64,000 nucleotides of DNA from Acidobacteriota bacterium (GTDB lineage: Bacteria; Acidobacteriota; Thermoanaerobaculia; Multivoradales; JAHZIX01): assembly GCA_034211275.1 (NCBI GenBank), contig JAXHTF010000001.1, forward strand, positions 120,590-184,589, read 5' to 3'. Positions within the stretch are counted from its first letter, which is position 1, and each line of letters starts with the position of its first letter. Below the pieces are notes generated by a model, which was given only the letters and a program-made list of their open reading frames with translations, did not search any database and had not been told where the DNA came from. The position numbers and the translations under genes are program-made. Of the stretch, positions 42,002 to 47,509 are shown one piece after another.

Positions 42002-43162
42002 CTAGGCCCCCGCCAACCCCCGCACCAGTCTCCAGGCCCCATCGAAGCCGAGCTGGGTGGGCTTGAGGGTTCGGGCGTGGATGCCGAGGAGGCGGGAGAA
42101 GAGGGCGGGGTCGGCGGCTAGGGTGCGGATTACGCGGCGGCGGAGCCGGGGGCGGCGTTCGATGGCTAGGAGGACGGCGGTGAGGGTGTTGGGCAGGCGG
42201 CCGATGCGGCGGTGGGCGCGGGCGTAGGGGCGGAGGTTGCCGGCGGCGAGGGCGTCGACCAGGGCGGCGGCCTGGTGGAAGGCCAGGGCCAGGCCTTCGC
42301 CGGTGATGGCGTCGAGATAGCCGGAGGCGTCGCCGACCAGGGCCAGGGGGCCGCGGGTGACCCGGCGCACCCGCTGGTGGAGGGGGCCGCAGCCGAGGTC
42401 GCGGCTCGCCGGAACGGCGCCTTCGAGGCGTTCGGCGAGGGCCGGGAAATGCTCCAGCAGTTGGTCGAAGCCCCGGCCGTCGCCGCCCCACAACATCGCC
42501 ACGCCCACCTCGCCAGCAGCCACCGGCGTGACGTAAGCCTCGCAGCCGTCGGCCCAATAGACTTCGACCCGATCGCTCCACGGAGCCAGGTGGTAGTGCC
42601 GGCGCAGGCCGAAGCGGCGGTGCTCTTTCGTCCGGCGCAGTTCGGGAGCCTGGAGGCCGGCCTGCCGGCGCAGGGGCGAGCGCAGGCCGTCCGCCGCCAC
42701 CACCCAGCGGGCGGGGATCTCTTCCTCCGCGGTCTCCACGACGGCCCGGGGCGGCGCCCCCCGCCGGCTCTCGAGCCTGCGCACTCCCGTCACCCGCTGG
42801 CCCCAGCGGATCTCCACCGCCAGCTCGTGACAGCGCGCCACCAGGGCGCGGTGGAGCTCCAATCGGCGGACGCCGAGACCGCCGCCGTGGGGGAAGAGGC
42901 CGTCCGCCACCACCTCGCCGTCGAGGTAGCGGATGCCGCGGAAGGGGGCGGTGGCCCGGGGGTCGAGGCGGACGCCGAGCTCGTCGAGGCGGGCGACGGC
43001 ATCGGGCATGAGGCCCTCGCCGCAGGGTTTGTCCAGCGGTGGGTGGCGACGGTCGAGGACCAGGACTTCCAGGCCCCGCTGGCGAGCCCCGAGGGCCACC
43101 GCCAGCCCCGCCGGACCGGCGCCAACGACGACGATGGGGCTCCCGTTGGGGTTCTCAGCCAT
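42002..43162 (-). CDS. FAD-dependent oxidoreductase (geranylgeranyl-reductase / flavin monooxygenase family; SrsC-like)
   Basis: IVVVGAGPAGLAVALGARQRGLEVLVLDR dinucleotide-binding fold. GDASGYLDAITGEGL (GD motif of FAD monooxygenases). Confidence 0.7.
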   Translation of the reverse strand: MAENPNGSPIVVVGAGPAGLAVALGARQRGLEVLVLDRRHPPLDKPCGEGLMPDAVARLDELGVRLDPRATAPFRGIRYLDGEVVADGLFPHGGGLGVRRLELHRALVARCHELAVEIRWGQRVTGVRRLESRRGAPPRAVVETAEEEIPARWVVAADGLRSPLRRQAGLQAPELRRTKEHRRFGLRRHYHLAPWSDRVEVYWADGCEAYVTPVAAGEVGVAMLWGGDGRGFDQLLEHFPALAERLEGAVPASRDLGCGPLHQRVRRVTRGPLALVGDASGYLDAITGEGLALAFHQAAALVDALAAGNLRPYARAHRRIGRLPNTLTAVLLAIERRPRLRRRVIRTLAADPALFSRLLGIHARTLKPTQLGFDGAWRLVRGLAGA

Positions 43163-45026
43163 GGCCCTTGCGTCCTCCGGCGCGGGCGTAGGCGATGGCG
43201 CTGCGGCCGAAAGCCAGGCCCAGGGTCAGGGGGTTGACCGAATCCGGCGCTTCGAGGGTGCCCAGACGCCAGCGTTCCAGCGCCGTGCTCCGGCGGAGCT
43301 TGCCCGACGACGTACGCGGGAGGGTGCCGGGGGCGAGCACGACTACTTCCTCGGCGCGCACCCCGACCTTCGCCAAGACCGCTCGGCGACAGGCCTCGGG
43401 GAGGTCGGCGAGCTCTTGCCGACCGGCGCCGCGGCGCCCTTCCACCAGCAGCACCAGCTGCTCGCCATCGGCGCCTTCCGGCAGATAGCTGGCGGCCACC
43501 GCGCAGCCGGTGCGCACCGCCGGCAGGGGGTCCAGGGCCTGCTCGATCTCCTCCGGCGCATAGTTGCGGCCGCGCAGCAGCACGAGATCCTTGGCGCGGC
43601 CGGCGAGGTAGAGCTCACCCTCCGAGAGAAAGCCGCGGTCGCCGGTATCGAGCCAGCCGTCCCGGAGCGCCGCGGCGGTGGCCTGGGGCTGATCGAGATA
43701 GCCCTCCATCAGCGACGGGCCGCGGATCCACACCCGGCCGGCGCGGCCTTCGCCGACGGGGGCGCCGTCGTCGCCGCGGATCTCCAGCTCGAAGCCCGGC
43801 AGCGGCCGGCCGACGGAGACGATTTCCGTGGCGGGCTCCTGGTCCTCTTCACCCGCACCCTCCCGAGACCCGGCTTCCGGAGAGCTGACTTCCCGAGACC
43901 CGGCTTCCCTGGCGGCCCCTTCGGCGGGCACCGCCCGGCCCTCCTCCACCAGCGGCCGGCGCTGGAAGCGGCGGCTCTCGAAGGGCTGGTCGAGGGACGA
44001 GAAGGTCACCGCCAGAGCGGCTTCCGCCAGGCCGTAGACCGGCGTCAGGGCCTCGGGCCGAAAGCCCCAGCGGGCGAAGCGGCGGCAGAAGGCCCGGAGC
44101 ACTTCCGGCGCCACCGTTTCGGCACCGTTCAAGGCCACTCGCCAGGCGCTCAGGTCGACGCCGGCTAGCTCGTCGTCGCGGATACGCTCCACCGCCAGGG
44201 CGTAGGCGAAGTTGGGCGCCGGCGAGACGGCAGCGCGGGTGCGGGACAAGGCCTTGAGCCACAGCGCCGGCCGCACCACGAAATCCTCCGGCGGCAGCAG
44301 GGTGAGCTCGGTACCCAGGGCGAGAGCGGAGAAGACGCAGCCGATGAGCCCCATGTCGTGGTAGAGGGGCAGCCAGCTGACGCCGGTGGGCAGGCCCGCC
44401 GCGTCCGGCGGCCAGTGGGCGTTGAGGATCCGCGTTTGGGCCACCACGGCGCGGTGGGAGAGGGCCACGGGCTTGGGGGCGACGGTGGTGCCGGAGGAGA
44501 ATTGCACCAGCGCCAGCTCGTCCTCGGTGGCCGTATGCTCTGGCCCGCCGGCCCCGTCGAGCCCCCCGGAGAGCCCCTCAGCGAGCTCGTCGAGACGGCG
44601 CACGCCCAACGGCGGGCGGGCGATCTCCACCGCCGGTCCCAACAGCCGCGCCACCCGGCCCTCCGCCAGCACCAGCCGCGCGCCGGCGGCCCGCAACATG
44701 CCGGCGGTGCGTTCTTGATACTCCCCCAGCCGACCGAGGCGCACCGGCGGATAGAGGGGCACCGGCACCGCGCCGGCGGCGAGGATCCCGAAGAAGGCGG
44801 CGAAGAAGTCCTCGCCGGTGGGGTAGATCAGGGCCACCCGCTGCCCTGCCTGGACTCCTAGGGCGGCAAGACCCGCCGCCACCTGGCGGGCGCGGTGGTG
44901 GAGCTCCCCCCAGCCGAGCCAGCGCTCCTCCAGCCGGCGGTCGAGGAAGCGCAACCCGCCGGTGCCGGTGGCGCCCTCGGAGGATGCAGCGGCGGCGAGC
45001 TGGGCGGTGAGGGTGGGGGCGCTCAT
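43155..45026 (-). CDS. fatty acyl-AMP ligase (FAAL)-like AMP-dependent synthetase
   Basis: LVQFSSGTTVAPKPVALSH (AMP-binding motif), YGLAEA, GWLDTGDRG, and a C-terminal LPRTSSGKLRR. Followed by an ACP gene. Confidence 0.8.
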   Translation of the reverse strand: MSAPTLTAQLAAAASSEGATGTGGLRFLDRRLEERWLGWGELHHRARQVAAGLAALGVQAGQRVALIYPTGEDFFAAFFGILAAGAVPVPLYPPVRLGRLGEYQERTAGMLRAAGARLVLAEGRVARLLGPAVEIARPPLGVRRLDELAEGLSGGLDGAGGPEHTATEDELALVQFSSGTTVAPKPVALSHRAVVAQTRILNAHWPPDAAGLPTGVSWLPLYHDMGLIGCVFSALALGTELTLLPPEDFVVRPALWLKALSRTRAAVSPAPNFAYALAVERIRDDELAGVDLSAWRVALNGAETVAPEVLRAFCRRFARWGFRPEALTPVYGLAEAALAVTFSSLDQPFESRRFQRRPLVEEGRAVPAEGAAREAGSREVSSPEAGSREGAGEEDQEPATEIVSVGRPLPGFELEIRGDDGAPVGEGRAGRVWIRGPSLMEGYLDQPQATAAALRDGWLDTGDRGFLSEGELYLAGRAKDLVLLRGRNYAPEEIEQALDPLPAVRTGCAVAASYLPEGADGEQLVLLVEGRRGAGRQELADLPEACRRAVLAKVGVRAEEVVVLAPGTLPRTSSGKLRRSTALERWRLGTLEAPDSVNPLTLGLAFGRSAIAYARAGGRKGHG

Positions 45027-47125: not shown

Positions 47126-47509
47126 CTAGGAGTCGAATCCCGTCCGCCGGGCCAGCAGGGCGAGGAGGATCCCGCACAGGGTGTAGAGGCCGAGCCAGCC
47201 GAGGGTGGCATTCCACCAGGGCTCCGGAGCGATACGGGCAGCGCCGGCGAGGGTGAGAACCAAGAGCGGCCCGCGGAAAACCCAGGCGATCCAGCCGGCG
47301 GCGATGCCGGCGAGGAAGCGCCCGCGGCCGGCGCCGTGGATGAGCAGGAAGAGGGTGATCAGCCCCACCGCCTCCAGCAACCAGCTGGCGAAAAGCACCC
47401 GCGGCGCCAGGTTGAGGTCGGCGCCCAGGTCGAGAGCATCCCAGCCAAAATGGAATAGAGAGATCATCAGGGCGATGGCGGGGAACGCAAGGGCGAGAAA
47501 TCTGAGCAC
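47126..47509 (-). CDS. small integral membrane protein (4 TM), hypothetical
   Basis: 127 aa, highly hydrophobic. Abuts the type III PKS stop. Confidence 0.4.
   Translation of the reverse strand: MLRFLALAFPAIALMISLFHFGWDALDLGADLNLAPRVLFASWLLEAVGLITLFLLIHGAGRGRFLAGIAAGWIAWVFRGPLLVLTLAGAARIAPEPWWNATLGWLGLYTLCGILLALLARRTGFDS

Follow-up and report, generated by a model that had tools for sequence, protein, structure and literature searches.

A type III polyketide synthase operon for a predicted fatty-acid-primed phenolic lipid in an Acidobacteriota genome, headed by a gene for a small membrane protein without family

Six intact open reading frames (ORFs), all on the - strand, occupied positions 42002-47509 of the stretch of DNA analysed in this work (the window: 64,000 nucleotides of an Acidobacteriota bacterium, contig JAXHTF010000001.1 of assembly GCA_034211275.1, positions 120,590 to 184,589; G+C about 70%). 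In the order of transcription, they encoded a small membrane protein (MEMB), a type III polyketide synthase (PKS), an ICMT-family methyltransferase (MT), an acyl carrier protein (ACP), a fatty acyl-AMP ligase (FAAL) and a flavin adenine dinucleotide (FAD)-dependent oxidoreductase (the flavoprotein). We put at roughly 0.8 the probability that this operon builds a fatty-acid-primed membrane phenolic lipid and is orthologous, in gene content and order, to ftpABCDE of Myxococcus xanthus; by analogy, the product is most likely a methylated alkylresorcinol or an alkylquinone. All coordinates are positions in the window, and the junctions between genes were read directly from the sequence. The features were the following:

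47126-47509, - strand: MEMB, small membrane protein of 127 aa, GTG start at 47509, the 5'-most gene of the operon
45965-47125, - strand: type III PKS of 386 aa, with the Pfam domains Chal_sti_synt_N and Chal_sti_synt_C
45316-45906, - strand: integral-membrane ICMT-family methyltransferase (SrsB/FtpB-like) of 196 aa, PF04140
45032-45319, - strand: stand-alone ACP of 95 aa, PF00550
43155-45026, - strand: FAAL (FtpD-like) of 623 aa, matched end to end by PRK09192 (NCBIfam)
43827-43991, - strand: region of the FAAL-specific insertion, about residues 346-400
42002-43162, - strand: FAD-dependent oxidoreductase (SrsC/FtpE/PkqC-like) of 386 aa, PF01494
47510-47968, no strand: intergenic region separating the operon from a divergently transcribed radical-SAM gene, presumed promoter region by position only

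The arrangement was operon-like and translationally coupled. The TAG stop of MEMB directly abutted the GTG start of the PKS, the TGA of the PKS was followed by a 58-nt spacer and the ATG of the MT, the end of the MT and the start of the ACP had an ATGA overlap in common, 5 nt separated the ACP TAG from the FAAL ATG, and the FAAL and flavoprotein genes overlapped by 8 nt (ATGGCTGA). A first-pass annotation, made from the DNA letters, had described six co-directional genes with overlapping or abutting boundaries, an ATG overlap of ACP and MT at 45316-45319, and the functions of the five enzyme and carrier components; ORFs, junctions and family matches bore this out. Two details had to be corrected: position 43162, given as the start of the FAAL, belongs instead to the first codon of the flavoprotein gene, whose beginning overlaps the FAAL gene at its 3' end; and the membrane protein, whose ATG had been placed 1 nt after the PKS, is the first gene, starting with GTG at 47509 and ending against the PKS start. 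The five operon ORFs long enough for a codon-position scan showed a coding-type G+C content at third positions (0.86-0.91), and all operon proteins except MEMB matched the expected families in Pfam and NCBIfam. Two start sites were reviewed. A 75-aa ORF from the automatic ORF list (45085-45312) proved to be in the wrong frame for the ACP, the real one being the ATG-initiated 95-aa frame. For the PKS, GTG 47125 and TTG 47116 were both candidate starts; the identical database protein P0001 takes an internal GTG (residue 27) as its start, which was rejected because the upstream "SAAASPGPRIAAVG" was conserved in P0002 and P0003 (87-89% identical to the PKS).

The PKS had M. tuberculosis Pks11 as its best solved relative (351 bits, E 7e-104, full length). 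Scores were 211 bits (E 2e-61) for the alkylresorcinol-forming CylI, 151 bits (E 5e-43) for the RppA-type tetrahydroxynaphthalene synthase (THNS; 1u0m) and about 100 bits (E about 1e-27 to 1e-30) for plant chalcone/stilbene synthases; the DpgA model of NCBIfam was not reached (201 against a cut-off of 425). The first-pass annotation had named a best match to an RppA- or chalcone-type enzyme as the result that would speak against it, and the ranking was of the other kind. Close homologues were named "alkylresorcinol/alkylpyrone synthase" by JGI, and the catalytic triad was intact (Cys159, His310, Asn343). Trp263, in "VMGWD", aligned with W230 of Pks11, both lying 47 residues before the catalytic His (H277 in Pks11), and would correspond to the cavity position of ArsB Trp281; resorcinol formers, among them the PKSs of M. 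smegmatis and M. tuberculosis, reportedly have Trp there, and the pyrone former ArsC has Gly (PMC9927152). By these sequence matches, the PKS is assigned to the long-chain alkylresorcinol/alkylpyrone group and not to the RppA/THNS or chalcone types. Its gene also contained a perfect in-frame 12-bp repeat (2.2 copies, 46431-46457) encoding "ADLAADLA", found only in this genome; the loop carrying it was 12 aa longer than in Pks11.

The AMP-ligase was aligned end to end by its top NCBIfam model, PRK09192 "fatty acyl-AMP ligase" (428 bits), and its top solved relatives were nearly all FAALs or FAAL-type loading domains (EcFAAL 3pbk, 7r7e, Legionella 3kxw, FadD23, FadD32 and FadD28). The FAAL-specific insertion, which the first-pass annotation had proposed as a check, was present: acyl-CoA-ligase profiles and Pfam AMP-binding stopped at residue 346 and restarted at about 395-404, residues 346-372 aligned with the EcFAAL (3pbk) segment after the YGLAE motif that represents the insertion, and its core was kept in an alignment of 24 orthologues from related loci. 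A low-complexity stretch of about 28 aa (AEGAAREAGSREVSSPEAGSREGAGEEDQ), derived from a 15-bp in-frame tandem repeat (3.3 copies, 43861-43909), extended the insertion in this genome only, compared with the 24 orthologues. On these features the protein classifies as a FAAL, apparently outside the subfamilies PRK09192 and PRK05850. The ACP, whose gene sat between those of the MT and the FAAL, matched PF00550 PP-binding (23.9 bits vs. a cut-off of 20.8) as well as NCBIfam ACP models, with a predicted phosphopantetheine attachment site at Ser43 (motif LDSM). The MT matched PF04140 ICMT (E 2.5e-24; 85.9 bits vs. a cut-off of 24) and had RHPNY and PAEE motifs and hydrophobic segments, by which its prediction as an ICMT-family membrane enzyme is clear.

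The flavoprotein matched PF01494 FAD_binding_3 (E 1.8e-21), carried the motifs GAGPAG (residue 14), KPCGEG (45), ADGLRS (157) and GDASG (277), and was 100% identical to a protein from a metagenome-assembled genome (MAG) at NCBI (P0311, "Acidobacteriota bacterium"). Its K-x-C-G-E-G motif, invariant among the homologues, is reminiscent of the cysteine motif of reductases. The best NCBIfam model was TIGR02032 (geranylgeranyl reductase), below its cut-off (104.2 vs. 158.8); the MenJ model reached 66.4 (cut-off 700), UbiH-type hydroxylase models also scored below TIGR02032, and some homologues were named "menaquinone-9 beta-reductase" by JGI. The AlphaFold2 model (mean predicted local distance difference test 88.9) had as its best Foldseek match 3nix, an uncharacterised Cytophaga flavoprotein (template modelling score 0.80), with similar scores for phenol and pyrrole halogenases, p-hydroxybenzoate hydroxylase and archaeal geranylgeranyl reductase. 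The model thus suggests a group-A-type flavoenzyme with a geranylgeranyl-reductase-like fold. A split into hydroxylase or reductase on structural grounds failed, these folds matching about equally.

From these assignments a pathway of four steps can be proposed. The FAAL would adenylate a long-chain fatty acid and load it on the adjacent stand-alone ACP, because a FAAL cannot use CoA. The PKS would take the acyl-ACP starter, add three malonyl-CoA units and, by aldol cyclisation, yield an alkylresorcylic acid or an alkylresorcinol. The membrane-embedded MT would then O-methylate this product; in S. griseus this step is decarboxylative, as the title of a 2012 paper by Nakano on SrsB states (decarboxylative O-methylation; cited in PMC5916927). 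Finally, the FAD enzyme would oxidise the ring to a methoxy-alkyl-hydroquinone or benzoquinone, just as S. griseus and M. xanthus convert alkylresorcinols oxidatively into alkylquinones (PMC10896814). The product would stay in the membrane and may be a "polyketide quinone" electron carrier or a protective membrane lipid; in M. smegmatis, such quinones are reported to work as alternative electron carriers, and they reportedly accumulate in spores of Streptomyces (PMC9927152, PMC5916927). MEMB would be a lineage-specific sixth component, most likely assisting in the transfer, retention or placement of the lipid at the membrane.

Several points weigh against this phenolic-lipid proposal. We infer the substrate, the chemical steps, the final product, its physiological role and the role of MEMB from analogy, and likeness to FtpA-E, SrsA-C and PkqA-C was judged by proxies, namely loci from Myxococcota MAGs and published identity values. 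The FAAL scored under the curated NCBIfam cut-offs (PRK09192, 428 vs. 600; PRK05850, 302 vs. 775). Pks11, the closest solved PKS, carries the name alpha-pyrone synthase, and the best curated family of the flavoprotein was the geranylgeranyl-reductase superfamily, with a score under the cut-off; as its fold was about equally like those of halogenases, hydroxylases and reductases, ring hydroxylation is not established by the sequence. For the planctomycetal genes, no effect of the homologous oxidoreductase could be detected on heterologous expression, and the methyltransferase seemed to be a C-methylating enzyme (PMC10896814), which makes the later pathway steps the least secure.

The same genes could perform another chemistry, in which the PKS releases alkylpyrones or the flavoprotein is a reductase or otherwise non-hydroxylating, giving a methylated alkylpyrone or alkylresorcinol and no quinone. 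The deposition of Pks11 as an alpha-pyrone synthase, the invariant K-x-C-G-E-G motif, the matches of the flavoprotein to geranylgeranyl reductase and MenJ together with its "menaquinone-9 beta-reductase" homologues, and the inactivity of the planctomycetal homologue on alkylresorcinol (PMC10896814) agree with it. We nevertheless consider it unlikely: the two reductase models scored far under their cut-offs (104 vs. 159 and 66 vs. 700), Trp263 stands at the position reported to be Trp in resorcinol formers, and the core of PKS, ICMT-type MT and FAD enzyme is reported to make alkylquinones in S. griseus and M. smegmatis (PMC10896814, PMC9927152, PMC5916927).

The phenolic-lipid cassette recurred in other genomes. 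In a scan at one genome per species, the six proteins were mapped onto 80 loci, mostly from Acidobacteriota MAGs. The full order MEMB-PKS-MT-ACP-FAAL-flavoprotein was found in 16 of these, labelled Thermoanaerobaculia, Holophagales or unclassified Acidobacteriota (two with insertions within the cassette), and in two further loci found from MEMB. Seven loci had the five-gene order without MEMB, including L045 and L071, labelled Myxococcota or Deltaproteobacteria, and L039, whose label is Alphaproteobacteria although its isolate name contains "MYXO". Identities to L045/L071 were 57-58% for the PKS, 50-52% for the MT, 50% for the FAAL, 43-44% for the flavoprotein and 28-32% for the ACP. An srs-like set of PKS, MT and flavoprotein was present in three loci. 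Most Terriglobia loci (L023, L033, L035, L040-L080) had the PKS followed by the flavoprotein (39-45% identical), with no MT, ACP or FAAL nearby; here the pathway is reduced to a variant of two genes. In one Acidobacteriota MAG (L082, 13524-16421), the cassette was followed by genes for a YceI-family lipid/isoprenoid-binding protein and an MMPL/RND-type transporter, a hint at transport or export of the lipid product in certain lineages.

This recurrence also bears on the destination of the acyl chain. Three large hybrid nonribosomal peptide synthetase (NRPS)/PKS genes lay at 2447-30626 (+), in a cluster that ran past the start of the window, and the first-pass annotation had raised the alternative that the FAAL and ACP supply a fatty acyl starter to this NRPS. 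The first NRPS protein opens with the domain order condensation-adenylation-thiolation-ketosynthase, which suggests a starter condensation domain of the lipopeptide type, and the in-window part of the cluster showed no FAAL or ACP of its own; the two proteins might thus feed that domain, solely or in addition to the type III PKS. This is highly improbable. The FAAL and ACP genes are translationally coupled within the PKS operon, with the MT and the flavoprotein, and at least 18 other genomes had the same cassette. When the NRPS condensation domain was searched by tblastn against the 80 loci with their 8-kb flanks, no match emerged, so the pair belongs to the PKS and not to the NRPS. The NRPS genes are on the opposite strand, 11.4 kb from the cassette, with ABC transporter, CsgG-like, LysM, Ig-like and Ser/Thr kinase genes and a low-GC island between them, and loading genes of their own could lie beyond the window start. 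The argument of the first-pass annotation that co-localisation favours the type III PKS was therefore upheld, and its NRPS alternative found no support.

MEMB (127 aa, four hydrophobic helices) had been reported as a small membrane protein, correctly, though neither its leading place nor its membership of the conserved cassette without a known family had been recognised. No Pfam or NCBIfam model matched it, even at E<=1, and a fold search gave no convincing match. A word-indexed search returned 121 clusters, all unnamed or "hypothetical", the named ones coming from Acidobacteriota, and only 71 family members came out of an exhaustive profile search through 1.84 billion representative proteins. 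Invariant residues in a 39-sequence alignment were W43, E46, W73, W76, F78-R79-G80-P81, W105 and Y109. With a hidden Markov model (HMM) of the MEMB family, searched against every ORF in 83 loci, the protein was detected in 22, always directly 5' of the PKS (once divergently), and the gene held this position in 25 of the 25 fetched loci that carried it. Three loci were fetched from divergent members of the family: two had the same six-gene cassette with different flanks, and the third ended just past the PKS. MEMB adjoined the PKS even in L012 and L026, where the other four genes were not found nearby. The HMM search found no MEMB in loci labelled Myxococcota or in Terriglobia loci, and the loci without MEMB showed no consistent pattern of a non-homologous small membrane protein 5' of the PKS.

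By sequence comparison, then, MEMB appears to belong to an undescribed, narrow protein family and, being constantly beside the PKS, is part of the cassette in one acidobacterial clade. Whether it is a dedicated sixth component of the pathway and founder of a new family, acting as a membrane receptor or chaperone that carries the nascent lipid from the soluble PKS to the membrane MT, or binding the quinone product, is a tentative idea that we regard as possible though rather doubtful; the aromatic or charged nature of the conserved intramembrane residues counts in its favour, as does the strict adjacency to the PKS, kept also in L012 and L026. A function in membrane hand-over or lipid binding is a guess.

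Upstream of the operon, a divergent block (47969-52403, +) encoded a radical SAM protein, a metallophosphoesterase, an FAD/pyridine-nucleotide oxidoreductase and a ferrochelatase. In 9-17 related acidobacterial loci this block was found in synteny with the cassette; it was absent in L081 and displaced in L082, and the synteny is probably inherited. A haem-synthesis neighbourhood would fit a respiratory polyketide-quinone role, which is speculation, and fits inherited synteny equally well. Short direct repeats occurred near the operon: a 16-bp repeat (2.1 copies, 47537-47569) at 28-60 nt before the MEMB start, one of 15 bp (3.3 copies, 48024-48072) within the radical SAM ORF, at its 5' end as annotated, and a perfect 12-bp tandem repeat (2.2 copies, 45923-45949) inside the PKS-MT spacer. 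A regulatory role for them is possible. The gap between PKS and MT was mostly much shorter in close relatives than the 58 nt seen here, and the RNA structure of the spacer was not significant (folding z-score -1.29). Consensus scans gave no sigma-70-like promoter or intrinsic terminator, a scan that is uninformative for Acidobacteriota, and an Rfam scan of the window gave no matches.

Directly 3' of the operon, a low-GC island (39900-42000; GC 0.56 vs. about 0.70 elsewhere) looked like horizontally acquired DNA. It contained an IS1-type transposase remnant (40564-40818, -; PF03400, E 1.9e-4, just below the cut-off) and two orphan ORFs without family (39902-40567, +, and 41110-41991, +), the second of which ended 10 nt from the flavoprotein stop and was also present in the Logan assembly L084. 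At the far end of the window, a MacB/FtsX-type permease gene (8-1546) preceded the NRPS/PKS genes. A tRNA-Arg(GCG) called by ARAGORN at 9925-9992 (-), inside the first NRPS coding sequence, was most likely a false positive, as the Rfam scan found no tRNA there.

The FAAL/ACP-primed type III PKS pathway to phenolic lipids, characterised in Myxococcus, was thus widespread and conserved in uncultured Acidobacteriota (MAGs labelled Thermoanaerobaculia and Holophagales). If the product is a polyketide quinone, as in mycobacteria and Streptomyces, these soil bacteria may possess an alternative quinone for respiration or a membrane lipid that protects them under stress. MEMB is a concrete candidate for an unknown step, the membrane hand-over or binding of the lipid; apart from it, the annotation is that of a routine biosynthetic gene cluster.

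Compared with known systems, the locus is an ftp/srs/pkq-type phenolic-lipid operon, an ordinary member of an already known pathway type. The ftpABCDE genes of M. xanthus, the subject of work by Hayashi et al. in 2011, reportedly encode a type III PKS (FtpA), a methyltransferase (FtpB), an ACP (FtpC), a FAAL (FtpD) and an oxidoreductase (FtpE), the same five enzyme types as in this locus. The order PKS-MT-ACP-FAAL-flavoprotein, common to the Myxococcota loci, agrees with the gene set and arrangement published for M. xanthus (PMC5006271), and the analogy to srs and ftp drawn in the first-pass annotation holds. The logic is also the same, in that a FAAL loads the ACP that primes the type III PKS: FtpD loads the ACP used by FtpA (PMC5707447). 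The present locus differs by the extra conserved MEMB gene before the PKS and by its host phylum, Acidobacteriota.

Within Acidobacteria, an ftp-like cluster (PKS, methyltransferase, AMP-dependent synthetase and monooxygenase) has already been published for the uncultured acidobacterium Mor1, which differs in being marine and of subgroup 22 (PMC5006271). Its identities to M. xanthus (PKS 58%, MT 54%, FAAL 54%, flavoprotein 47%; PMC5006271) are close to those of the present locus to L045/L071.

The srsABC genes of S. griseus and pkqABC of M. smegmatis have the same core, a type III PKS, an ICMT-family MT and an FAD oxidoreductase in one operon, and the same predicted product class, a methylated alkylresorcinol converted to an alkylbenzoquinone. 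They lack FAAL, ACP and MEMB, so that acyl-CoA or the ACP of fatty acid synthase is the presumed source of their starters, whereas here the ACP and FAAL genes interrupt the core gene order. The cyanobacterial hidABC and planctomycetal mtr-fdo-t3pks genes also combine an alkylresorcinol type III PKS with a methyltransferase and an FAD oxidoreductase (PMC10896814), but in the order MT-oxidoreductase-PKS and with no FAAL, ACP or MEMB. MEMB, for which no precedent was found, is the sole novel element of the locus.

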